Source: a virus (lineage: Duplodnaviria; Heunggongvirae; Uroviricota; Caudoviricetes). From it: a stretch of 64,000 nucleotides of DNA. Each line of letters begins with the position of its first letter. Position 1 is the stretch's first letter. Where the stretch lies: the IMG/VR virus record IMGVR_UViG_3300001373_000069; one strand, 5' to 3'. Below, piece after piece: positions 3,181 to 62,576 of this stretch. Below the pieces are notes generated by a model. The model did no database searches. It was given only the letters and a program-made list of their open reading frames with translations, and had not been told where the DNA came from. The position numbers were made by a program, and so were the translations under genes.

Positions 3181-4238
3181 CAGTTACCTTATACCTTTCA
3201 ATATAAGCCGGACTATCCCTTAATCTTTAAATTTCCAAAAATACCCAAATGCCTTAATAGTTTTACCATTACAGCATCTTATTATACCAGATTGTCTATT
3301 ACTAGGTAATCCAAGTTTAATAATTGCTAATGCAACAGTGTCGAAAGCCTCGACAAATCCATTTTCATCAGATTGAATCACTCCAGGATATTTAGACATA
3401 CCTTTATTAAAAGGTATTCTACCCTTAAGTCTACTCTTTTGTTCTTCTGTAAATAGTCTTCCACTACTAGCTTTAGATAATTTTAGTTTTGTATCTTTAC
3501 TATGCTTCTTACCTTTCATAGGATGTATAGCACCTGGTTTATTCAACCAGTGACCATTTAAACCAACAGACTCTCTCCAACTATCAATTTGATGCTCGGT
3601 ACGTTTTCTACCTAAAGCATTATTTGATAATTTTAACCTAACTATTGACTTATTGGATTCTGATAATCCTGAAAAGGTGTCACCGCCATCTCCTCCCATA
3701 GTCATATTAGTTAAAGAAAACCCCCACTGAATCAATTGACTGATCCAATATATTTCTAATTCATAAGCATCTTGTTTAGTTTCACAACTATCAAGTTCTT
3801 TTATTAGAGGTTCTAATCCTTTGCTTCTTAATGACTTAATCCAAGAGAGACGTTTATTCCATTTTCTAGTTTCTTTTTCAGCCTCATCCAAGTTCTTTAG
3901 ATGACCGTAAAGTCTTTTTGATAAAGACTTCTTAGTATACCCTACATATCTAACCTCATTAGATATAGGGTCTTCAAGTGTATAAATGTAATATGTTTCC
4001 ATAGTACTATTATAGTAAAAACTAGTTGCATAATCATAGATATAATAAAGATTCCCCCATTATAGTCTCTGAACCTTGAACTCTTTAAAGTTCCTTGGCT
4101 GCGGATTATCCAATTCAACATCTTGTTACCATACCATAATGATTAGTTATGCCGCGTATAGTTCGCACTATACGTTTGGTAATGTTGACTTAAGGAAGTC
4201 CCCGCAATTTAGAGGGTTTTATAAGGCCCATAGTATTA
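3181..4238 (-). other. Group I intron (approx. 1058 nt) interrupting the helicase gene, carrying a GIY-YIG HEG
   Basis: The 5' exon ends in U (..gct) followed by an in-frame stop. The intron's 3' terminal base is G. The intron contains a free-standing HEG ORF and GC-richer structured-looking flanks (4003..4235). Confidence 0.6.
3220..4002 (-). CDS. GIY-YIG homing endonuclease (intron-encoded)
   Basis: N-terminal 'YYIYTLEDPISNEVRYVGYTKKSLSKRLYGH' GIY-YIG motif. Confidence 0.85.
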   Translation of the reverse strand: METYYIYTLEDPISNEVRYVGYTKKSLSKRLYGHLKNLDEAEKETRKWNKRLSWIKSLRSKGLEPLIKELDSCETKQDAYELEIYWISQLIQWGFSLTNMTMGGDGGDTFSGLSESNKSIVRLKLSNNALGRKRTEHQIDSWRESVGLNGHWLNKPGAIHPMKGKKHSKDTKLKLSKASSGRLFTEEQKSRLKGRIPFNKGMSKYPGVIQSDENGFVEAFDTVALAIIKLGLPSNRQSGIIRCCNGKTIKAFGYFWKFKD

Positions 4239-5375
4239 AGCCTTGTACAGCGATGTAGCATAGGCATAATCAAACACAGCAAACGACTGTAAGAATTGAT
4301 TGTAGCGGCTCCATTGACCATATTCGGCGGCCTCCTTGTAACGTTGTCTACGAACTATCTCGTAAGCAGTCTGAGCTTCCTCTGTGTTCATCACGACTGG
4401 TATTCCGGTAGCTGTAGTTGGTACATTATCCAGGGCTAGATATGCACATGGTATACCAAAGGGACCTAACTGATAAGCTATCCCAGTAACTACCGAAATC
4501 TGACCATTATGGATTATAGGAGATCTGTTAACTGAAAATCCTCCTCGAGATATGATTATCTCATTTCTTTCGAATTGATGGGAGTTCTTTCCGTATATTC
4601 TCTCTCTTACCCCAGTATTTAAAAGCTCAATAGTCGAGTTCTTATAGGCTAGTATACGAGTATGATTCTTATCGTTACGATTACTAATTATATCATTAGC
4701 GGCCCGATCAACAGTACAATGAATATCATTCATAAATCTATAACCGGTATCACCTCTCATACAATCCTGTCTACCATACTCTTCTTCGAGAATATACTTA
4801 TTGAACGGTAGATCTTTATTGATGTTATCGATCTCTTGTCTAATCCTGACAGCTAATTCACCGATCGGTCCTTCGAATCGTTGCGAAGTAGTCAACTCAG
4901 CATCTATTCTATCAAATTCTTGTTTTACTGGAGGTAATTGAAATGGGTCGCCAACCACAATTAAGTGAATATCACGAATACTAACCTCGTGCAGAATTGC
5001 GTCAACCAGCGGATCATCTATCATTGATGCCTCATCTATCAAAAGAATCTCAGTACCATCAATTTTCATGTTACCGTTCTTATTTCTTTTAAATGAGATT
5101 TCTTCCGAGGAGTCGTCCATTTGCATGCCAAGTAGTTGTGCTATTGTAAAACTAGTTCCAATAGACTGCTTCAATACTTCTTTAGCAGAGTGTGCTATGG
5201 TTCCACCAACTACTTTCCTTTTCTCGTGCTGCAAAGCCTCTTTTAACATAAAAGTCTTACCACTACCAGGAGGCCCCGATAATACAAAGAACTCGTTTGC
5301 TTGAGCAGGTTTACTTAAGAAATCACGGATTCCTTCGGCAGCTACTTTCTGTTCCTGAGTTAATGTTGATATCAT
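4239..5375 (-). CDS. SF1 Dda/RecD-like DNA helicase, 5' exon
   Basis: Walker A 'GPPGSGKT', motif II 'LLIDEASMI', motif III 'VVGDPFQLPPV'; ORF stops abruptly inside motif V (..FDYAYATSLYKA*). Confidence 0.8.
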
Positions 5376-6445
5376 ACTAATACCATTTTACCTCCACTAT
5401 TAACACATAATTCATCAAGTTCTTTGTTTCTATTTGTGGAAACAGCAAACAAGCGAATATTAGACGGGAAATTAACTATACTCTCCAATCCATCTGTAAT
5501 AAAGATGACTGAATTACTATCATACTTCTTGATATGGTTGTACACGTTTTTCCACCCTTTAGCACTGAGTACCGGAGAAAATTTATAATTGACATACTCT
5601 TTTAGATCCTGTCTTGTATTTAACACAATCTCTTTAACTGGCATATTATTGAACTCCAATATGGTAACTTCAGTAACATCATCGATAAAAGAATCTAACA
5701 GGCTGAGTAGTACAGCTTTAACAATAGAAAAATACTTGGGATTAGTTGACGTAGACCAGGAAACATCCACCATAACCACAACACTGTTGTTCTGGTTCAT
5801 GATGACCTTAGATTCCCGTATGAAGGGTTTCTTCAAGGCTATGTCGGTCTTAAAGGAAGGTAAAGCAAACCTATACTTCCTAATCTTGTGAATGTCACTT
5901 AGTTTAGATAGTCTAGATACTTGAGATACTCTTGTGGGAAATAATTCACCGGCGACATGCTTCATACCATTGTAAAACTTAATGATATCAAGAAGTTCAT
6001 CGGTTAGAACCAGTTCGTTAGCAGGTATACTGGCATCGATCCCTAATAATTCAAGGTGTTCAGGGTTAATCGTAGATATATCATCTTTATAGTTCATCTG
6101 TCTAGATTCCATATCAATAAGAATGGGATTACCAGAAAGTCTACAATATTCTGCACTACGAAGGTTAACCTTAGGGGATATTAGTTTTAGTACGTTGATA
6201 GCAAACTCAATAGGATTATTGGTTTCTACAGAATCAGCATTAACCATATCCATAAGCTCAATAAGAGTTTCTGTGTACGGAGATGGTCTTCCCGTGGCAC
6301 CATAAGCATTCAACATCTTATAGATTCTTAGATAAGCCATGTCTGAAACAATACTAATCGGAATATATCCTTCATACCCCATTCTCTCTGCACTACGCAT
6401 AATATCATATGCAGTAACTATAAAGTTATGAGGAGCTTTCACCAT
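5372..6445 (-). CDS. von Willebrand factor A (vWA) domain protein, partner of MoxR-like ATPase
   Basis: MIDAS-like 'VVMVDVSWSTS'; overlaps and is co-oriented with the upstream AAA gene. Confidence 0.65.
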   Translation of the reverse strand: MVKAPHNFIVTAYDIMRSAERMGYEGYIPISIVSDMAYLRIYKMLNAYGATGRPSPYTETLIELMDMVNADSVETNNPIEFAINVLKLISPKVNLRSAEYCRLSGNPILIDMESRQMNYKDDISTINPEHLELLGIDASIPANELVLTDELLDIIKFYNGMKHVAGELFPTRVSQVSRLSKLSDIHKIRKYRFALPSFKTDIALKKPFIRESKVIMNQNNSVVVMVDVSWSTSTNPKYFSIVKAVLLSLLDSFIDDVTEVTILEFNNMPVKEIVLNTRQDLKEYVNYKFSPVLSAKGWKNVYNHIKKYDSNSVIFITDGLESIVNFPSNIRLFAVSTNRNKELDELCVNSGGKMVLV

Positions 6446-7547
6446 TGATTATAAAGAATAATTGAGACTCGACCTCACACCCAAGTTCACCTACAATTCT
6501 ATACCTTAGCGAATGTTCAAGTGTAGAACATCGGTTTATAAAGGTTAGTATCTCTGTAGTATTCTCTTGATGTTTAGAAGTAACCTCTGTTAGTTTGCTT
6601 ACAATGAAATTGATTTCAGCTAAGGCACTAGTAATAGCCCTAATGGTTGTAAGAGGTTTACTTTCCAAATTATCGGCCCATTTATTAGCTCGATCTAGTA
6701 CAGCTTTTATCCTGAATCTCTCTGTTACAAAAGAACAATACATTAAGACTTCAGTCATATCAGCAGTATCTAACCCATCAACATATTGAAGAACACGTAT
6801 ATCCTTATGAACATCAAGAAGATCAGAAGCATCCTTGATAACCCTTGGGGATACCAAATCAATAGTCCTGGCTGCAGTTTCTGCTAATACATCATAGAGA
6901 AGGCTCTGAGCATCTACTTGGTCTGGTTTAACCACCTTTAGGAAATCTAAATAAGCTTCATGAGAATAATGATCCCACATTACTTTAATTCTAATAGGGA
7001 ATCTTTCCTTATAAAAAGCAGCACTAGAATCATCAATACTGACATCTTCTGGGCTCTTGTTGGTGCATATAATAACAGAACTTATTAACGATTCGGTGAA
7101 CCTACCATTCTGTCTTAATCCGCCTTCGGTTAAGATATCCTTCAATGCAGCAGCAGTAGATGGTCTGGCATCCAGAAATTCTTCAAGAATCAATACTCCA
7201 GGACTACTAAATACACTACGATCAAACGCTGTTTCATATACAGAGGTTTCAGTCAATTTCTTGATGTTTGGTATACCAAGTAAAGCCTCGACTTCCATAT
7301 CTTCATAACCAACAATTGTTGGGGCTGGTATACTAACATAGTCAAGAAAAGCCTTTACAATTTGTGATTTACCAAATCCTCCTGGTCCATACAGTATAAC
7401 ATTCTTACCAGTTGTAGTACCGAGGTATAATGCCTCTATAACCTTGTTCATATTGTAGAAACGTTTACTAAGTGCTTCTTGAATAGATTGTAGTGAATGA
7501 GATAATATTGTCTCTCTTATCGATGTTACAACTTCTGTCCTGTTCAT
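6426..7547 (-). CDS. MoxR-like AAA+ ATPase
   Basis: Walker A 'LYGPGGFGKSQIV'; paired with downstream vWA gene. Confidence 0.65.
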   Translation of the reverse strand: MNRTEVVTSIRETILSHSLQSIQEALSKRFYNMNKVIEALYLGTTTGKNVILYGPGGFGKSQIVKAFLDYVSIPAPTIVGYEDMEVEALLGIPNIKKLTETSVYETAFDRSVFSSPGVLILEEFLDARPSTAAALKDILTEGGLRQNGRFTESLISSVIICTNKSPEDVSIDDSSAAFYKERFPIRIKVMWDHYSHEAYLDFLKVVKPDQVDAQSLLYDVLAETAARTIDLVSPRVIKDASDLLDVHKDIRVLQYVDGLDTADMTEVLMYCSFVTERFRIKAVLDRANKWADNLESKPLTTIRAITSALAEINFIVSKLTEVTSKHQENTTEILTFINRCSTLEHSLRYRIVGELGCEVESQLFFIINGESSS

Positions 7548-14574: not shown

Positions 14575-14783
14575 TTTGTTATCTTAAAGGCTCTTTATCC
14601 TTTAATTCTCATACTTTACCATAGTATGATGTTCGGACTATGTCATCACCCTAAACCAGGGTGTCGCGCGCTCGTGTCGTTTTACTGTCCGTTCTGGACT
14701 CCATACGTTAGTCTCTGCTCCTTCAATGCATTCCTGCAAAGCTTGGATCACGATTACCCTTCAAGGGAGGGCTTTCCGTGAGT

Positions 14784-15428
14784 TCACGCGATTTTAATGG
14801 GGCTTAGGATTTCATCGACTAAAGCCTTTTTTCTTTTTAAGTACCATGATGAATCAGAGTATAATAGACCAACCAGTAATTCAACATCAGTTTTTCTACG
14901 CACTCTAAGTACATATATTTTCCCCTGTTGTCTAACTGTTGAATGAATACCATAACTGTTAAAAAAGTCTTGTAGTGGTATTATTTCAGGTTCAGTAATA
15001 CACAAAGTCATATTCCAATATGGTTTTCCATCTGTAATTTGCTTTGAATAACAACCATCGCCATCTATATAACCCCTGATATAATGAATAAATAATTCTT
15101 CAGGTAAATCTAATAATACCGATTTTACACCAATATTAACTAAATCAGTATAAAGCTCTTTATTATAAGACCTCAATACTACCTTGTTATTAAATCGTTC
15201 CTCATTATTCCACACATAACTATCCTCGCTATATGATATATTAAAGAATGGAAATTCACTTTCAAATCGTTTAATAATTTCCTCATCTTTAATACTTAGT
15301 TTTAACTTACTACAACTGCTATATGCAATTTTAGAGTAATGCAAACTACCATCAGCATGAAAGAAACCTAGAAAATATGCTTTAGCTTCTGTGTCAATAT
15401 TCTTAAATTCATCATTATAAGATACCAT
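14784..15428 (-). CDS. LAGLIDADG homing endonuclease
   Basis: 'YFLGFFHADGS' and 'YIRGYIDGDGC' LAGLIDADG motifs. Confidence 0.85.
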   Translation of the reverse strand: MVSYNDEFKNIDTEAKAYFLGFFHADGSLHYSKIAYSSCSKLKLSIKDEEIIKRFESEFPFFNISYSEDSYVWNNEERFNNKVVLRSYNKELYTDLVNIGVKSVLLDLPEELFIHYIRGYIDGDGCYSKQITDGKPYWNMTLCITEPEIIPLQDFFNSYGIHSTVRQQGKIYVLRVRRKTDVELLVGLLYSDSSWYLKRKKALVDEILSPIKIA

Positions 15429-15790
15429 AACTATTTATTTGGATTAATTGTAAAATCGTACCAAATATATTATAGTTAGAAAAATTGATTGTGTTTACCC
15501 CATTTCCCCAAAGCATCTTTATTCGCACGCTTTGTAGAATACATTTTATTATTTATATAGGCTCTTTATCCTATACTTTCTACAATTTATCTTGTTATAG
15601 TTGTAGAGTAGACTATATCTTTAACTTGCAAACCGCAAGCAGTGTCCCGCTTTCGTGGAGAACTTTATAGCTTTGGCTTTACCCAGTAAGCGTCATCTCT
15701 AGTCGTTCGGCATTTACAATTATTTCTAACTGATTTAGCACGGGATTGTCCTCTTCAGGAGTTTCCCCGTTTAACGGAATTTATACTCAA

Positions 15791-16429
15791 CTATTCTATT
15801 AAATTACCTTCTTTGTTGTATACTACCCAATGAAATCCTTTACATGTTGTACTGTTGATAGAAGATCTGATAATATGTGATGCATGATTTAGTCCAAGAT
15901 CTCTGAAAGCTTGATATGGATTGTCATATGTATGCACTAAATTCCATTTAGAATCATATTTCTCGCACTTTCCATACTTACCAGTTCCTCTTCTATTTGT
16001 ATTACCAAGTTGTGCAGTTTTAGAAGATTCACTAATCTTTTTCCATACTTCTTGAGTATGTAAATGAGACTGATCTCTTAATTTTGCTTTAGCAGACATT
16101 TTGGCTTTAGTGGATTTACCAAACCTAAACCCAGTAGTTCCCAGACCAGGATAATCAGCATTATAACCATTACTAACGGTATCTAACAAATTAACCCAAT
16201 AGTACTCCATTTGTAAACAATATTCTGGGGGATAAGTCTCGAGAATCTCAAATCTAAATGATTCCTCTCCGTACTTGTTCCAAGAACGTTGTAAATGATC
16301 ATTATAATGAGTATTTGATCGTAATTTACGTCTGTGATCTGACCATCTAGAACTAAAATATCGTTGAGCTGACCCTACGTACATTTTTCCATTAACAGTA
16401 TTTGTGATAGTATATACACCTGATTTCAT
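15791..16429 (-). CDS. GIY-YIG homing endonuclease
   Basis: 'SGVYTITNTVNGKMYVGSAQRYFSSRWSDHRR'. Confidence 0.85.
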   Translation of the reverse strand: MKSGVYTITNTVNGKMYVGSAQRYFSSRWSDHRRKLRSNTHYNDHLQRSWNKYGEESFRFEILETYPPEYCLQMEYYWVNLLDTVSNGYNADYPGLGTTGFRFGKSTKAKMSAKAKLRDQSHLHTQEVWKKISESSKTAQLGNTNRRGTGKYGKCEKYDSKWNLVHTYDNPYQAFRDLGLNHASHIIRSSINSTTCKGFHWVVYNKEGNLIE

Positions 16430-31318: not shown

Positions 31319-31463
31319 ATGTACTAGAGGGACTTGAACCCCCGACCCCGCCCTCCCAGGCACGTATACTGTCAGTCTAGTCTCTTGTACTTCAAGACTT
31401 CAAACAACTTATCGTCGACGGTGGTGTTTTAACCACTACTCTAACCAACTGAGCTATAGTACA
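31319..31463 (-). ncRNA. tRNA-like element (145 nt): tRNA-Ile paralogue with ~65-nt insertion between anticodon arm and T-arm, and a non-canonical (6- or 8-nt) anticodon loop
   Basis: Perfect 7-bp acceptor TGTACTA/TAGTACA. D-arm is TAGCTCAGTTGGTTAGAGT. The 24-nt T-arm segment gagggacttgaacccccgaccccg is identical to tRNA-Ile at 36038..36061. Anticodon region is GTGGT-TAAAAC-ACCAC, followed by CGTCGACGATAAG..GGGAGGGC before the T stem. Confidence 0.55.
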
Positions 31464-32607: not shown

Positions 32608-32709
32608 TTTATATTTGTATTAAATGGTTTCAAGGGAGAAAGGTATCGAGACTCATTTCCGCGACGGTCTCTGTTGGATATCTCCGCTTTCGTATAATAC
32701 CTTTCTTTG

Positions 32710-32781
32710 TGGGGATGATGGGATTCGAACCCAAGCCTCCGAGCTTTTAGACCCGGTATTCAACCGCCGAACTGCGCCCCC
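32710..32781 (-). tRNA. tRNA-like gene (72 nt) with apparent 8-nt anticodon loop UCUAAAAG (contains CUA/UAA triplets); anticodon undetermined
   Basis: Acceptor GGGGGCG/CATCCCC (one mismatch), D-arm GTTC-GGCGGTT-GAAT, anticodon stem CCGGG/CTCGG, T-arm TGGGTTCGAATCCCA. Confidence 0.5.
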
Positions 32782-33380: not shown

Positions 33381-34456
33381 AAACGTCTGATTATTAATTA
33401 CTTAGTGGAGATGGCGGGAATCGCCTTAAAAAATAATTTCGCACAGTTCCATATTTATTATTATAATGCTATTATACATTATAAAACATAAAGATATGAA
33501 AACAATTAATTGTACATGTAACTACTGTAATAAATCTGATGAAGAACACATTAACACATAACCAAACAGTAGAATTTTTACAAGAAATAGCAAAATTAAT
33601 AAATACTTAACTTTCGTTAAGGGTTGGACTATATCATCACCCGTTCTGGGTGTCGGATGCTCTAGGCTCACCTTAGTGTCCTTAGTCTCTGAACCTTCCT
33701 CATTCTTCCATGAGGCTCGGCTGCTGATTGACATGTAAATTAAATAGCGTTCAGTATGTACTGCTTCACTTTAATGGGCTCTACATAGTCCCAACTATTT
33801 AATTTATTTAGCTTTCCAGCAATTCTTCCAATTATTTAACTGAGTATTCCTACTCAGTGGGTCCGATTCCTTTTAAACCCGCGTCCAAACATCCGGTAAT
33901 ATTAGTGCTACTTACGTGCGTAGCTGGAATGACGTCCAGCACCTAGGACCAACTGTTTACAGCTGGAGCTCCACCACCTTATTTTGAGAAAACAAGGAAA
34001 ACAACTTGCTGATTTTCTGTTTCTAGGATCACAGCTACCCAATCGCCATATTAAGCTGCAAGAGCCGTAGCGAAAGACATTACGCGAACGTTGTCCTCTA
34101 TAGTTCGATGGACTACCATCATCTTGCACGGACTAATACCCACTGACAATGCTGTCAAAACCAGTCATCCCCGATTATTATTTCATTCGATATAATCCAT
34201 AACAGAGCCACATAATAACTGAAAATTCAACATCTTTTGTTGTAATTAATTCAACGATAGTTATTAGTGTAATACAGAACATAGCAGGATGTTTTATGAA
34301 TACTTCTTTCATTCGATATCAATTTGAATAAACGACATTGTTAGAAAAGATACACCAGTACAAAATGCAATGACTTTGATTGGTTCAGTAGAGGGATATA
34401 GATCAGGGTGCATAATAGAGAATGCTATGAAAAGCATACCCACAACAATACCCCAT

Positions 34457-45563: not shown

Positions 45564-46237
45564 AATGTGTTAGTTTTAAATTATTTTTAGCACCCTCTTG
45601 TCTAGTTAAATGGTAGGCGACACGAATATCGCGATCATTGTATAGAGTAGGGTCACTGGTTGACAGTATGGGCGAGACTGTCTGCTATTTAACCATTGCT
45701 GAGAACTTTTCGTGTTGTGTGTTTTAGAACCTAAGGAACCGCACACATACCATCCTTTCTCAAGGGAACAACACGCATAGGGTTACCTAGTAACTGTGTG
45801 GGATTGCAGAGTGTAAGATTCCACACTATCCATCTGCATTTTAAGTTACGTACCTTGTTAGGCCTATGATCTTCGTAGTCCGCGCCGTCAGCCTCCTGGC
45901 TGCCTCACATATACCGGTTCACTTCTAGCCGTTGTCATATACACTTATTCTTCGTAGCTGGCCTACGTGTCGCTATCATAGATACCAAGTCTATAAGAGC
46001 TATTCTTCATGTACTGACCAATTAACATACAGATCTATATACTAGCTACGCCCTGGTCGATACTCAGGCTTATCAAGGATCACTTGACTGTACTATTAGT
46101 ATGTTATGTTTTAATAGAGCCGAGAGAAGGATTCACACCTTCGCGGTGGGTCATCGGACATATGCACAAGTCCTCATGTACTCTTGATGGGCATTTCTCA
46201 CTACATCATTCCTATTACGTAGCATCTCGGCATTGTT

Positions 46238-46546
46238 TTATTCAATAATACATACTGGAATAGTATTCACATATATACCAATAAGCTCGCATGGTTTATA
46301 TTGATTACCATTTTCTTCCACCATTATTAACCATTCGTAACCACGACTTGTGCTATAATCTTTAATAATCTCTTTAATGGTTTGTATACCAAATGGAGTA
46401 ACAATCTTCTGCCCTTCTTCGTATAAATACCTTTTAGAAGTATCTATAAGATCCTCGTAGGATTCCAACGGTCGGTTAGGATTCTTAGCTATTATAAACC
46501 TATCCTCCATTTTACTTAAGAAATAATCTTTATGTAATGTAGTCAT
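46238..46546 (-). CDS. hypothetical protein (102 aa)
   Basis: ORF track. Confidence 0.45.
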   Translation of the reverse strand: MTTLHKDYFLSKMEDRFIIAKNPNRPLESYEDLIDTSKRYLYEEGQKIVTPFGIQTIKEIIKDYSTSRGYEWLIMVEENGNQYKPCELIGIYVNTIPVCIIE

Positions 46547-48430: not shown

Positions 48431-48667
48431 TCATTTGATACTGTCTGCTTTCATTACTGTAAGATGAGACTTAATCATAGCAATGGCAAGCTTGTTTTCT
48501 TCCTTGGAATGAATCACTGTATCAATACAAAGTGATGTTGAAGTACCCAAGCCCACCATTACAAAATCGTTTGGGTCCAAGCCTACCATCTTAATAGTAG
48601 ACTCGATAATTTCTTTATGGGTTCTTACCTCACCTATACCAGAAATTAGTATTAAATATTGTTTCAT
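48431..48667 (-). CDS. hypothetical protein (78 aa)
   Basis: ORF track. Confidence 0.4.
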   Translation of the reverse strand: MKQYLILISGIGEVRTHKEIIESTIKMVGLDPNDFVMVGLGTSTSLCIDTVIHSKEENKLAIAMIKSHLTVMKADSIK

Positions 48668-48669
48668 TC

Positions 48670-48942
48670 TTAACGTGTTAGATTGTTAATACAGTTCTTT
48701 GTTTTCTTACCACATCCACAAGGACATGGAGTATTCCTCTGCACCTTAGTACTCACTCTAGGTAAACATTTAGGGTGCATACCTACCATTACTGGGTGAT
48801 TATACAGTCTGTATGGTATAGGTTCATTGAAATCAATTATTCTTGGAGTCATATAATATGGTTTAAATAAATTACATACCCTAATAGTTATTCTCTTGTG
48901 TCTATGACTTACCATGGATATATTGCTACGTAAGCATATCAT
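48670..48942 (-). CDS. hypothetical protein with C-terminal SEC-C-like zinc motif (90 aa)
   Basis: 'CPCGCGKKTKNC' at C-terminus. Confidence 0.45.
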   Translation of the reverse strand: MICLRSNISMVSHRHKRITIRVCNLFKPYYMTPRIIDFNEPIPYRLYNHPVMVGMHPKCLPRVSTKVQRNTPCPCGCGKKTKNCINNLTR

Positions 48943-50238
48943 AGGCGCACTTCAACAAGTAACTATTAGGTCGACACGAAAAAAGCAAATCCCAAAAGGA
49001 CCAACTAACCAACGCAACTCACTCATCATACCAATACTAACCTTAAGGTGATTGATACAGACAGCAAGTAAATGTTTTACACCCTCACCCATAACCATAC
49101 TTAGTGCTCTGAGCATCCCTAAGGACTCTAAACTAAGTGATCCATACTCACAATGGTATGATTAATTATGGTATTACTCCCGGTTCTTTAACCCTAAGGC
49201 CCGATTTGTAATAATCATTTACATGAGTTCAGGTGATCTGTGCTGGTACTAGGAGACGACTCCCCATACAGACAGCAATCAAATATCGTAGACTCTCGTA
49301 GCGAGAGAATAATGTGTGTAGTCATTGGCACTCACTAGTACGTCGACCCAACAGCATCAGAGAATCACTCCTCTAACACCGTGTGGATCAACTACTAACA
49401 CATCGCATCGGATGCATTAATACTATAACATTTAAAAGTATGAGCCCAAATAAAAAAGCCAACCACCCAATTGCGCGAGGGTAGCTGGCTCAAAAACAAT
49501 TAATCAATTAACCAAAAATCACACTATGAAGACTCCAACTCTTGACAAAGCTGTACCGTTTGATTCACTCCGGACCGGTTGTCCGTGTCATGGTTAGTTT
49601 TATATTATCCTTACCAATGATGTCGTCACACACCATTACTCCTGCTCAAGAGTATTCAAAGAATAATACGCCGTGGTATACGCTACCGATCTAATCCCAC
49701 TAACTCTATTAATAGAGAAGGAGATATGTCGTGTGCTTGTATTTCGGTCATGTCAATGGTATTCCTGCCCATTAAGCATATGTTACAACGTTGGAATGTC
49801 TTATTAGGACTCGTTGTTGGTTATGGCATGTCGTAGTCTACCATACTACCACACGTTTACCTGATTTTATAGTCTGCACTAACTTGTTCTTATCCAAGCG
49901 ATTAGGATTCCATAATGATAGTATTGATCGCATTTACTAACTATCATAAGAACACAGTAGCCCCACAGGTTTGTCACGGTTTATGATCCGTAAAGTTGAG
50001 GTTCCGCCACCTCCGTCCTACCATTAAGTTATATCTAACGGTAGCAAACTTATCTCGACGTTTTATTTGTGTATCCGAGAATGCTTGAACTGGGTCATCT
50101 AGTTAGGATACCCGTTGTTCAGTAATCTTTATATGATAGCAATAGCCTCATTACAATGATTAGTAATTAATAAAATTAGAACTCAAGAAAGGGGACTACA
50201 CGAATGCAATCCCCTATCAAAGTCTTTGTGCCCGGATC

Positions 50239-50883
50239 TTATTGATTCCAAGCAATGGCGAACACCGGAGTGCTGCTGAAATACTTACGATCAGCTTCAA
50301 CTGCCCATGATTTGGTAGCGAAGTCAGGTTTCACACCAGAAGCATGTAACCTAGTACGAGCTGCATTCCAATCCACGTTACTCTCGCGAGTTTCAGCAAG
50401 ATAGTCATCAAACTTCTTGTAGCAAGAAGGAAGAAGAGCTGGTCTGGCTTGGTCGTTGGCATCTGATTGAGCTAATTTGGCAACACATTTGAATTTCACA
50501 GCGGTGATGTCCAACTCTTTGCCTTCATCAAGACCTTCAAGGGCCTGTTTGAAGAACATCAAATCTGGGTTTGTACGAGCTGCAGCAAGGGTCATTTCAG
50601 CACCAAGTACTGAAGCATCTTTACCTTCTGATAATACGCGCATGGTTGGAATACCCTGCCCAGATACCTGGAATTTACGACGAGACGCTCCTTCGAATTG
50701 ATACGATGGATTCTCTGGGCTAACATTTGCCCGTGGGTTTGATGACTCAGTTTTGAAATCAACAATGCTGATCTCATCACCAATTTCTACACTACCCAAT
50801 GCCTGCATTCCAGCAGATGATTTTGCTAATGATTCTTTTAAAGCTACTAGCAATATAGCTTTTTGTTCTTTGTTCAAACTCAT
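50239..50883 (-). CDS. hypothetical protein (214 aa), GC-enriched (~48%) relative to the genome
   Basis: ORF track; strong compositional contrast with flanks. Confidence 0.5.
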   Translation of the reverse strand: MSLNKEQKAILLVALKESLAKSSAGMQALGSVEIGDEISIVDFKTESSNPRANVSPENPSYQFEGASRRKFQVSGQGIPTMRVLSEGKDASVLGAEMTLAAARTNPDLMFFKQALEGLDEGKELDITAVKFKCVAKLAQSDANDQARPALLPSCYKKFDDYLAETRESNVDWNAARTRLHASGVKPDFATKSWAVEADRKYFSSTPVFAIAWNQ

Positions 50884-60365: not shown

Positions 60366-62576
60366 ATGAAAGAAAATGTAGATAATATCTCACAAATATG
60401 GACCCCTGACCGAGAACTATGTGCGCAGGCCGATGCTTGGAGACAAGAGAAAGAGTGGTTGCGTAAGAAGACAGGTTACAGTGGTCTAAAGCCATCAGAG
60501 CTGGGGATTGACGCTTATATGTACGGTAGTAAACTGCCCGAGAAGTTTTTCGAGGGCAGAATGCCGCCACCAGTACCATTAGATTCGTTAGAGAATATAG
60601 AGTGGTATGAGGAACAACTAAAGCGCGCAGTGTACGGTTTTGAATGGAAAGGGTATAGGGTAACCGGCGATCATTATTGGTTATTGAACTTCACTCCGTT
60701 CCTTGTAGCAAAGAAGAACAAGAGAGGTAAAATCACCAATGAATTTGATGTGCAGTTCCCCTATTTCTCTTATATGCATGATTACATATTTAAGTTGATG
60801 GAAGAAGCCCATTACAATAACCAGGCGTTCACATGGATGTCAGGTCGTGGTAGTGGTAAAACTTACTCGATCTTATCTGTAATAGCAAAGACTTATCATC
60901 TTAAACCTAAGAGTCACGGTATTGTATCGGCATCCAATGCAACACATGCGGAAGAGGCCTTTAACAAACTAAGACTTATGCTTGACTCCATAGCTGAGGT
61001 ACATCCAACATTAGCATTAGCTAGGTTACAGGATACCAAAGGTATGATAGAGTCTGGACAAGAGGTAGTTAGAGATGGTGTTAAATATAAAGAAGGACCA
61101 CGTTCGCGTGTACAACGTATTGTATATGGTGACAATCCCGGGGTAACCAGGGGATCTCGTCCGGATATTCAGTTGCTTGAGGAAATCGGTGACTGGAGTA
61201 GCGGCGTAGGTGATTTAAAATCTTGTATCGGTGCATCTATCGGATCATGGCGCGTAGGATCAATCCAGAAGTGTCGTGTGTTTATGATTGGTACCGGTGG
61301 ATCAGTTAAGTCGGATCAAGCGAAGGATGTGTTTACTAAACCTAAGTCGTATCACATCCTACCGTTAACAGACTTCGGTAAAGAACATGGTTTCTTTTTA
61401 CCGGCTCATTATTTGTTAGGGGGTCAAGGATGGGAAGAAACTGGTGTGAATAATGTTGAAGCATCGAAAGCATATCTGGATGAAGAGCGCGAGCGTACTC
61501 GCGATGATATGGAAATCCATTCAAAAGTAACTCAGGAGTACCCTTACACTATTGAAGAGGTATTTCGTAAGATGGGTACTAACAACTTCAACCAGAGGAA
61601 GATAGCCGAGCAGTGGGGAAGAATCAATTTCGAACCTGATATTAAGAAACCAGAACGCGGGTATCTGGAATGGATCAAGACTCCTAATGGAACTATTAAA
61701 GGAGTTAAGTGGTCTCCAAACACAGAGGGTGATATAGAGATAATCGAACACCCGTATAGAGGGCCAAATGGTGATATGACTTATAAGGGTCTTTATGTTG
61801 CAGGACTAGATGGGATTGATCAAGGACAACTTGATTCAACTTCTACAAAGAATAGATCTTCTCTGGCTATGTTGGTTAAGAAGAGAATTGTTGACGGCCA
61901 ATACTTTAAACAAACATCTAACTTATATGTAGCCAAGTACATAGGCAGGAGTCTCGACGTTCGTTGGGATTATGAGAATGCTCTAAAACTAGCTATGTAT
62001 TATGATGCAGAGGTAAATATCGAGTACACAAAGATTGGTATAGTTGGTTACTTTAGAGATTGTAAGCAATATCACAGATTAATGAAACGTCCTATGATAG
62101 CTACAGCTTCGGCCGGAGATGGTACAGATGTTTTATTTGGTGTTAAGAGAACAAATCTAATAGGTACCACAGCTACTCCTGCAGTTATAGATCACCAGGA
62201 CGGAAAAGTAAAGGAGTACATCGAGGATTATTACCAGAACATATTGTTCATAGATCTACTTGAGCAGTTAAGAGATTACCAGAGAGAGGATAGAACTAAG
62301 TTTGACTTGGTGATCGCCATGGGTCTATGTGAATTAGCAGATGAAGACATGCTTGGCGAACCATCTAAAGAAGCTGGTAATGAAACTGCTGGGTTTAATA
62401 TGTTTGGTTGGCATGTAGACGAGTACGGCTATAGACACTTTGGAGAACTTCCAAGTGGTACAGGTTCTATATTTACTGAAACTTCCGGTATAGGTTCTAG
62501 TCCTGTACGTTGGGTAGATGCTTCAGGTAAACCTAGATTTGATGACGACTACAATATATTAAATAAAGACGAGTAA
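60366..62576 (+). CDS. terL: Terminase large subunit
   Basis: 736 aa; Walker A 'WMSGRGSGKTYS' ~165 aa from the N-terminus, size and position typical of TerL ATPase-nuclease. Confidence 0.7.
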   Translation: MKENVDNISQIWTPDRELCAQADAWRQEKEWLRKKTGYSGLKPSELGIDAYMYGSKLPEKFFEGRMPPPVPLDSLENIEWYEEQLKRAVYGFEWKGYRVTGDHYWLLNFTPFLVAKKNKRGKITNEFDVQFPYFSYMHDYIFKLMEEAHYNNQAFTWMSGRGSGKTYSILSVIAKTYHLKPKSHGIVSASNATHAEEAFNKLRLMLDSIAEVHPTLALARLQDTKGMIESGQEVVRDGVKYKEGPRSRVQRIVYGDNPGVTRGSRPDIQLLEEIGDWSSGVGDLKSCIGASIGSWRVGSIQKCRVFMIGTGGSVKSDQAKDVFTKPKSYHILPLTDFGKEHGFFLPAHYLLGGQGWEETGVNNVEASKAYLDEERERTRDDMEIHSKVTQEYPYTIEEVFRKMGTNNFNQRKIAEQWGRINFEPDIKKPERGYLEWIKTPNGTIKGVKWSPNTEGDIEIIEHPYRGPNGDMTYKGLYVAGLDGIDQGQLDSTSTKNRSSLAMLVKKRIVDGQYFKQTSNLYVAKYIGRSLDVRWDYENALKLAMYYDAEVNIEYTKIGIVGYFRDCKQYHRLMKRPMIATASAGDGTDVLFGVKRTNLIGTTATPAVIDHQDGKVKEYIEDYYQNILFIDLLEQLRDYQREDRTKFDLVIAMGLCELADEDMLGEPSKEAGNETAGFNMFGWHVDEYGYRHFGELPSGTGSIFTETSGIGSSPVRWVDASGKPRFDDDYNILNKDE

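Follow-up and report, generated by a model that had tools for sequence, protein, structure and literature searches.

Positions 48943–50238 of a 64,000-nucleotide (nt) stretch of DNA from a tailed-phage record (IMG/VR record IMGVR_UViG_3300001373_000069; the whole stretch is called the window below) very probably form a minus-strand noncoding RNA locus of a divergent crAss-like phage. The locus is arranged around a Hatchet self-cleaving ribozyme, which would cut the transcript and give rise to an RNA with a predicted length of about 0.55 kilobases (kb). The region is bounded by the stop codon of an open reading frame (ORF) of 214 amino acids (aa) and by the start of a 90-aa ORF, both on the minus strand. 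Read along that strand, it holds a terminator-like hairpin (T1), an unstructured promoter-like block, a block of four hairpins (U), the ribozyme, a structured RNA (D1), a second terminator-like hairpin (T2), a second conserved segment (D2) and a lineage-specific tail. An earlier inspection of the letters alone (the original prediction) had proposed a large structured noncoding RNA of the GOLLD/ROOL type. The general idea of a conserved structured noncoding RNA in a tRNA-rich phage is supported by our analysis, but a single giant RNA is too simple a picture, as the modules stand in series with two terminator-like hairpins between them. For annotation this means that the gap is neither a missed gene nor an assembly artefact.

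The ribozyme was identified in a search with the covariance models of Rfam 15 (4,227 families), to which a permissive rescan of positions 48600–50500 at E ≤ 10 was added. The Hatchet model (RF02678) was matched over positions 1–133 of 133 with 77.2 bits, compared to a gathering score of 51, and besides Hatchet the permissive rescan gave one chance match to U1 only. Helix P1 (UUACGG/CCGUGA) has 6 base pairs (bp), one of the two lengths (3 or 6 bp) by which members are recognized, and it covaries by eye, being UUAUGG/CCAUGA in lineage L002 and UUGUGG/CCAUGA in lineages L011 and L005 (alignment A5). Helices P2, P3 and P4 were recovered by RNAalifold with 16 of 30 pairs showing compensatory changes across the 10 lineages that could be compared, and the elements CAA, UGUGGGGC, GUGCAGAC and UAAAAUCAGG fit the model consensus and are invariant in all of them, in keeping with the highly conserved nucleotides by which the P1-P2 linker and the P2-P3 internal loop of Hatchets are marked. 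In members of the class the cut follows a C and falls at the 5' base of P1 (Li et al., 2015; PMC4604424). As the sequence at this place reads ..GAGGUGGCGGAACCUC-AAC↓UUUACGG (..ACCUC-AAC↓UUUACGG), with a C at position −1, the predicted cut lies between C49995 and U49994. The hairpin P0 stands three nt upstream of it and occurs in every lineage; a hairpin of this kind, a few nt from the site, accompanies about 90% of Hatchets and was dispensable for catalysis in those tested (Li et al., 2015; PMC4604424). The class has been known since 2015, when all 210 examples were metagenomic and none came from a completely sequenced organism (PMC4604424), and a 2026 preprint places most known Hatchet copies in Crassvirales. 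Judged by its sequence and consensus fold, the ribozyme is a new member of this known class, and Hatchets in crAss-like phages are not new. The source named for the class is reportedly Weinberg et al. 2015.

Relatives of the locus were compared next to the 214-aa gene. The encoded protein has nine homologs at 63–80% identity, in addition to its own 100% match, and one further IMG/VR locus (L177), from a 175-kb contig, was found with a DNA probe. Homolog-bearing metagenome contigs together with L177, of which 1,114 nt were compared, represent ten distinct lineages. In 10 out of 10 a Hatchet scoring 59.1–81.1 bits lies directly 3' of the homolog of the 214-aa gene, demonstrating that the locus is ancestral to the clade and not a foreign insert, as had been considered; only the distal 310 nt are lineage-specific. 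The base composition of the region is unremarkable as well. Instead of the proposed enrichment to roughly 45%, GC content amounts to 40.3%, compared to 37.2% for the window; it is equal or higher in 12% of equal-sized windows, and the top value over 200 nt is 45.5%. Further searches extended the set little: scans of IMG/VR with two flanking proteins and with their alignment and scans of GTDB genomes with two probes retrieved nothing, a metagenome scan added two short loci only, and GenBank phages gave no match to the region or to the 214-aa protein by megablast, blastn or tblastn.

The region is noncoding, and the sequence on either side of the ribozyme is under purifying selection. As proposed, it is free of sizeable ORFs, the longest within it having at most 54 aa, and the run of 1,290 nt (48952–50241) without a stop-free frame of at least 80 codons is the longest in the window; the runner-up (45570–46240) measures 671 nt, about half as much. 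In pairwise alignments among five lineages, substitutions in the noncoding stretch were distributed over the codon phases as 885/846/881 (p = 0.59), compared to 431/370/1,113 in the 214-aa gene, and indels were multiples of three in 31 of 171 cases versus 6 of 6 in the gene, at nucleotide identities of 63–76% versus 65–76%.

Downstream of the ribozyme, covariation supports the fold of D1. In five lineages (RNAalifold), 22 of 74 pairs were changed on both sides, compared to 9.9 ± 2.2 in shuffled alignments (none of 500 reached 22) and 5–8 when the partners were slid; the covariation across homologous phages that had been suggested as a check on a structured RNA is thus found here above controls. 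A covariance model (R1) of the 155-nt core of D1 (49674–49520), which comprises the three-way junction and two hairpins, recovered L177, a sequence outside its seed, with 30.8 bits and an E-value of 4e-4 to 2e-5 depending on the amount of sequence searched. With six sequences, 24 of 31 core pairs were compensatory and 93.5% of cells were paired, compared to 8.2 ± 2.1 compensatory pairs after shuffling and 4–8 after sliding. The folding z-score of D1 is −2.8, compared to −0.8 for a coding control, and values from −2.0 to −2.8 in sub-segments bear out the many short hairpins noted initially; the hairpin cited as an example (TCTCGTAGCGAGAGA, 49294–49308), in contrast, falls in a part that is not conserved among the relatives. 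D1 had no Rfam match (E ≤ 10), and R1 finds no copies elsewhere, the Hatchet loci of IMG/VR included.

The D1 RNA would end at T2, which is present in the window, L006, L013, L008, L011 and L005 with a covarying stem and a conserved loop. The stem of 12–13 bp (−19.6 kcal/mol) precedes a T-run, and 6 of 12 pairs of the respective helix (helix 11) are compensatory. T1, with a stem of 10 bp and compensatory changes in 6 of 13 pairs across 6 lineages, is built alike; each combines a hairpin, a U-tract and a conserved position, and termination is predicted for both. A scan for a simple terminator consensus, probably too restrictive in loop size and tail, reported neither of them. The loop of T2 (49479–49472) holds a self-complementary CGCG/GCGC, so that loop-loop dimerization is conceivable; no intramolecular complement to GAGUCUUC or to the T2 loop was found within the RNA.

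Some short motifs were also followed. Near the 3' end of D1 (49535–49522), the sequence AGUCYUCA occurs after a hairpin, and the same motif occurs at the equivalent sites of L011 and L005 and near the end of a second Hatchet-associated RNA described below (alignment A12, columns 340–348). By eye, 5'-GAGUCU-3' could pair with 5'-AGACUU-3' of the Hatchet core. The 14-mer ATGCGATGTGTTAG has 42 matches in IMG/VR, none of which is alike beyond the Hatchet core, and they were therefore taken as chance. Within the window, TTGCTGTCTGTAT, GAGTGCCAAT and GCTATCATATAAAGATTA are not genome-wide motifs, and TATAAAGATTA is weakly enriched (11 vs. 6.0 ± 2.2).

Upstream of the ribozyme, the lineages differ in layout. 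In L014, L011 and L005, only a strong hairpin of 11–15 bp lies between the stop codon and the cleavage site, indicating a compact arrangement of gene, P0 and Hatchet; in L014 this hairpin, its P0, is the homolog of the window's T1 and stands 4 nt from the cleavage site. In the group of the window, about 190 nt, namely the promoter-like block and U with a new P0, are placed between the old hairpin and the ribozyme, and L013, L008 and L002 have yet a further block of about 60 nt at this position. The promoter-like block (GCUAUCAUAUAAAGAUUA) is unique in the window; read by eye as TTGTAA-17 nt-TATAAA, it is possibly a promoter, and a scan for the sigma-70 consensus, which was uninformative, did not report it. 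The mean identity of block U (85%) exceeds that of the coding gene, and its last 80 nt or so are near-invariant, being unchanged even in L177. Its first hairpin covaries and its folding z-score is −2.3. Block U is absent from L002, L014, L011 and L005, and it had no Rfam match (E ≤ 10).

Beyond T2, the motifs of D2 are common even to L005. The D2 hairpin, which shows compensatory changes, contains eight G.U pairs, and the structure therefore works as an RNA transcribed from the minus strand. The covariation-supported folds of the locus are thus D1, T1, T2, the D2 hairpin and the first hairpin of U. A folding z-score of −2.0 was obtained for 48943–49445. The 32-nt element of D2 is repeated directly in the tail at a distance of 211 nt, and an exact 13-mer is found at those two sites only. 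For the tail no homolog was found and there is no similarity to the relatives or to their downstream genes, which rules out a decayed copy of those genes; preceding the 90-aa ORF, it is probably either an intergenic leader or what is left of a recombination event. The genes 3' of D2 differ among the window, L008 and L005, and 7 of 12 contigs of the relatives (4 of 9 lineages) end at the equivalents of 49229–49410, all in D2 and no more than about 180 nt apart. Together, these two observations place the locus at the border of conserved and variable modules, and the clustered contig ends suggest strain-level variation, a repeat or a genome end just downstream. Most likely, D2 and the tail serve as a promoter or leader zone and as a recombination boundary for the variable genes beyond.

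Table. Features of the Hatchet locus (window coordinates) and of comparable loci on other contigs (contig coordinates).
Feature	Position	Strand	Remarks
214-aa gene	50239..50883	minus	homolog immediately 5' of the ribozyme in every relative
T1, terminator-like hairpin	50182..50215	minus	AGGGGAUU..AGUCCCCU, then UUUCUU; compensatory changes
Conserved unstructured block	50123..50140	minus	GCUAUCAUAUAAAGAUUA; 6 lineages including L177
Block U	49998..50120	minus	four hairpins; 85% mean identity
Block U hairpins	50120-50087, 50079-50054, 50045-50017, 50013-49998	minus	the last is P0
Hatchet self-cleaving ribozyme (RF02678)	49859..49997	minus	Rfam, 77.2 bits
Hatchet P1	49994-49974	minus	
Hatchet core motifs	49969-49960, 49879-49872, 49869-49860	minus	
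D1, structured RNA	49490..49858	minus	~370 nt; covariation, folding
D1 three-way junction	~49666-49600	minus	hairpins 49653-49638, 49636-49617
D1 further hairpins	49584-49572, 49553-49536	minus	
D1 conserved single-stranded motif	49535-49522	minus	GAGUCUUCAUAGUG
T2, intrinsic-terminator-like hairpin	49450..49489	minus	loop UCGCGCAA, then UUUUUUAU; six lineages
D2, second conserved noncoding segment	49255..49444	minus	69% mean identity
D2 invariant motif	49408-49395	minus	GCGAUGUGU
D2 G.U-rich hairpin	49392-49342	minus	~19 bp; 8 G.U pairs, compensatory changes
D2 motif	49333-49324	minus	GAGUGCCAAU
D2 32-nt element	49297-49266	minus	
D2 motif	49262-49255	minus	GAGUCGUC
Lineage-specific tail	48943..49254	minus	second copy of the 32-nt element at 49086-49055
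Same-strand noncoding RNA arrays	L102 110-6952; L108 5391-10342; L056 102-5456; L112 2801-6727; L132 65-4614; L025 4278-8477		
Clade-2 RNA examples	L017 3112-3451; L027 7688-8027; L081, L101, L103		

From this arrangement the following course of events can be proposed. Transcription would enter from the 214-aa gene and, in the lineage of the window, perhaps also start at the promoter-like block (about 50140–50123). The ribozyme would then cut itself co-transcriptionally at the predicted site. The 5' product, which would be the mRNA in the compact lineages and a leader RNA of about 120 nt in the window, would have the P0 hairpin and a 2',3'-cyclic phosphate at its 3' end, which would thus be formed without a terminator. 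The 3' product would carry a 5'-OH on the folded ribozyme and extend through the 370-nt D1 to T2 as a discrete RNA of about 0.55 kb. In such a scheme the ribozyme would act as processing punctuation, by which the upstream gene is uncoupled from the structured RNA and from the variable genes beyond.

Hatchets at other loci were surveyed for comparison. IMG/VR contains at least 120 loci with a Hatchet-like core, none of which has the flanks of the window or a match to R1. At 107 IMG/VR Hatchet loci, the median distance from a same-strand stop codon to the start of the ribozyme is 57 nt, and a general link of the 214-aa family to Hatchets was not seen among them. One crAss-like lineage carries arrays on a single strand in the order RAGATH-14, -6, -7, -7-assoc, two to four Hatchets, tRNA, RAGATH-9 and permuted tmRNA, and on another Hatchet-bearing IMG/VR contig (L019, 8424–8820) a standard tmRNA gene lies beside tRNAs. 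A second clade (clade 2; 26 IMG/VR loci) has the Hatchet subtype of the window, followed by a conserved RNA of its own of about 340 nt (alignment A12). This RNA is ORF-free, shows 15 compensatory pairs and ends in a hairpin and CAAGUCCUCA, after which variable genes follow; it had no Rfam match in the five loci scanned.

Several points weigh against a discrete, ribozyme-released D1 RNA. The covariation comes from five to six related sequences, and the structure is favoured by the fitting of alignment A8 to the model. R1 does not match L011 or L005 although T2 and a few motifs are common to them, and D1 is therefore not uniformly conserved. The near-invariance of U points to a function beyond simple end-formation, for which the proposed course of events gives no account. 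Finally, the clade-2 RNA enters genes without a terminator, which fits a 5' leader better than a free-standing RNA. In sum, the evidence is well anchored and the homolog set is small.

The main rival explanation follows from the last of these points and is, in our estimation, possible rather than probable. It takes the locus as a processed 5' leader or insulator headed by the ribozyme, in which variable downstream genes are given a defined, folded 5'-OH end that is uncoupled from transcription further upstream; engineered ribozyme insulators would here have a natural counterpart. Besides the clade-2 RNA, the D2 motifs of L008 and L005, which end 20–45 nt before the ATG of the next gene, speak for such a leader, as does the fact that the RNA is kept while the genes after the locus differ between lineages. 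However, in the clade of the window the strong and conserved T2 stands between D1 and anything downstream, and the window itself has a further 500 nt without a gene after T2.

A second explanation, which appears doubtful to us, is an element acting at the level of DNA, especially in 49444–48943, such as an origin, a packaging or terminus site or a recombination hotspot. The clustered contig ends described above would agree with it, as would the 32-nt direct repeat, the break of synteny at the locus, and a cumulative GC-skew minimum with a strand switch about 3 kb away (52–53.6 kb). Against it, the D2 hairpin needs its G.U pairs, which are not formed on the other strand and give no stabilization to DNA; the ribozyme and both terminators share one direction; and strain variation in the downstream genes explains the contig ends equally well.

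It seems improbable that Hatchet is instead regulated, with the invariant block of about 80 nt as an aptamer or as a sensor binding protein or RNA that switches the ribozyme, as for glmS or tandem riboswitch-ribozymes. Block U is conserved in sequence (invariant in L177) while D1 drifted by compensatory changes in the same lineages, and it abuts and includes P0, which speaks for regulation. Yet the four lineages without the block keep the ribozyme, P0 was dispensable in the tested Hatchets, no riboswitch family of Rfam 15 was matched, and U showed no alternative pairing with the ribozyme core.

A guide or scaffold RNA for the 214-aa protein, comparable to RAGATH-18 for the IS607 TnpB, is very unlikely. 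Linkage of gene and RNA locus is strict throughout the 10 lineages, and one ribozyme-associated RAGATH RNA is indeed a TnpB guide RNA (PMC11061315), but the 214-aa protein, half the size of TnpB, is without a nuclease or other recognizable domain, there are no transposon ends, and R1 is without copies elsewhere.

A protein gene hidden by stop-codon reassignment has next to no probability left: crAss-like phages often recode TAG or TGA (PMC7886860), and reading through TAG opens 121 codons on the plus strand (49621–49983), which is the interrupted frame noted originally, but this frame is not coding and overlaps the ribozyme on the opposite strand, no frame longer than 128 codons arises when one stop codon, whichever it is, is reassigned, and the recoding idea is rejected because substitutions lack a codon phase, 140 of 171 indels would shift the frame, and the approximately 20 tRNA genes detected by ARAGORN and Rfam include no suppressor tRNA. 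Equally negligible is a catalogued giant RNA such as GOLLD or ROOL, or a group I/II intron, for which the similar size, the tRNA-rich phage context and four group I introns elsewhere in the window would speak; GOLLD, ROOL, HEARO, OLE, raiA and group I/II introns had no match within 48600–50500 at E ≤ 10, Hatchet being the sole real match among all families, and these candidates are rejected at the sensitivity of the Rfam 15 covariance models. For an intron, moreover, a host gene would have to be interrupted, and every homolog of the flanking 214-aa gene is complete.

We therefore return to the noncoding RNA locus around Hatchet. No biological role has been established for Hatchets in the literature searched, and the setting seen here recurs: after a conserved gene comes a stabilizing hairpin, then a folded RNA up to a terminator, at the edge of variable genes. 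A Hatchet heading a conserved structured RNA recurs in a second, unrelated clade, and in other crAss-like phages Hatchets punctuate arrays of RAGATH RNAs, tRNAs and tmRNA. These cases lead to the testable idea that Hatchets serve as RNA-end-forming punctuation releasing structured phage RNAs. Three or four candidate new RNA motifs are obtained (U, D1, D2 and the clade-2 RNA); judged by Rfam 15 and the literature searched, U, D1 and D2, the invariant domain fused to P0 and the recurrence in two clades appear to be new. A more far-reaching proposal, which we hold to be unlikely, is that a larger class of phage RNAs, so far uncatalogued, carries Hatchet as its catalytic head at the 5' end, that the released, structured and ribozyme-capped RNA of 0.35–0.55 kb has a function of its own in infection, and that the invariant domain of about 80 nt in the window senses a signal and gates the cut. 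If true, this would be the first biological role for Hatchets and possibly the first natural allosteric Hatchet.

The phage itself is a deep-branching relative of Crassvirales. A 736-aa ORF (60366–62576) encodes the large terminase, with 24–28% identity to crAss-like phages of Bacteroidota; four group I introns score above the Rfam gathering score (4022–4248, 14608–14867, 15580–15842 and 33605–33884, all minus strand); and about 20 tRNA genes were detected in the window (15 by ARAGORN, 16 Rfam tRNA matches). The distant terminase, the introns and the tRNA genes together indicate a very divergent crAss-like phage. The number of group I introns agrees with reports of a high intron density in some crAss-like groups, and published surveys of crAss-like genomes describe introns, tRNA blocks and recoding and leave ribozymes or noncoding RNAs unmentioned. 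ARAGORN found no tRNA within the region, the nearest one being 6.8 kb from the locus. One Rfam tRNA match spans 145 nt (31319–31463), with a possible insert or intron, and ARAGORN reported a 'tRNA-???' with a 2-nt anticodon call at 32709–32781.

Proteins near the locus are poorly characterized. PHROGs and Pfam gave no match near the locus for ten neighbouring proteins, the 214-aa protein had no match in Pfam, PHROG or PDB (profile search), and its AlphaFold model is of low confidence (predicted local distance difference test, pLDDT, 57), too poor for a fold search. The 90-aa ORF (48670–48942, minus strand) has CPCGCGKKTKNC at its end, similar by eye to a metal-binding motif of the SEC-C type, and is without a homolog in the related contigs. 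Elsewhere, a DUF2828/DUF7788 protein (23297–24883), a MoxR-type AAA ATPase (6426–7547) and a vWA protein (5372–6445) are encoded. The runner-up gap at 45570–46240, the second-longest ORF-free gap, also lies between minus-strand genes and had no Rfam match at E ≤ 1; the contigs of the relatives end short of it.

Compared to known Hatchets, the ribozyme of the window is alike in the full model match, the 6-bp P1, P2 to P4, the conserved core, the C at −1 and the upstream P0, and, as for the known examples, its source is uncultivated. It differs in occurring only once, in a phage that is crAss-like but very divergent, in being set within clade-specific conserved RNA modules, and in the invariance of a block of about 80 nt that includes P0, a hairpin that was described without sequence conservation elsewhere (PMC4604424). 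The clade-2 RNA shares the Hatchet subtype, a conserved, covarying and ORF-free RNA followed by variable genes, and an end in a hairpin and AGUCYUCA, as in the D1 RNA; in contrast, it has no alignable similarity, no match to R1 and no terminator after the RNA.

The RAGATH RNAs, mostly of unknown function, are grouped by association; one of them, RAGATH-18, is the guide RNA of the IS607 TnpB (PMC11061315). Like these, U, D1 and D2 are conserved structured RNAs next to a self-cleaving ribozyme on the same strand of phage DNA, which is the operational definition of a RAGATH, and the same Rfam scan found RAGATH-6, -7, -7-assoc, -9 and -14 in other Hatchet-bearing crAss-like contigs. Here, no RAGATH model was matched in 48600–50500 (E ≤ 10), and D1 is longer (about 370 nt) and bounded by ribozyme and terminator; since the class is defined by association, it constitutes no homologous family. 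With GOLLD and ROOL the locus has in common a structured noncoding RNA of several hundred nt in a phage with many tRNAs, but there is no homology, and the present locus is modular, contains a ribozyme and lies well away from the nearest tRNA.

HDV-like (hepatitis delta virus-like) ribozymes, at the 5' end of retrotransposon RNAs, and glmS ribozymes cleave at their own 5' edge; the upstream RNA is thereby set free, and the downstream product retains the catalytic fold as its 5'-OH cap. The locus described here has an unrelated fold, no retroelement ORF and no known ligand. By analogy, it would resemble these systems in cleavage at the 5' edge of the ribozyme and in RNA ends and fates that are set by the ribozyme.

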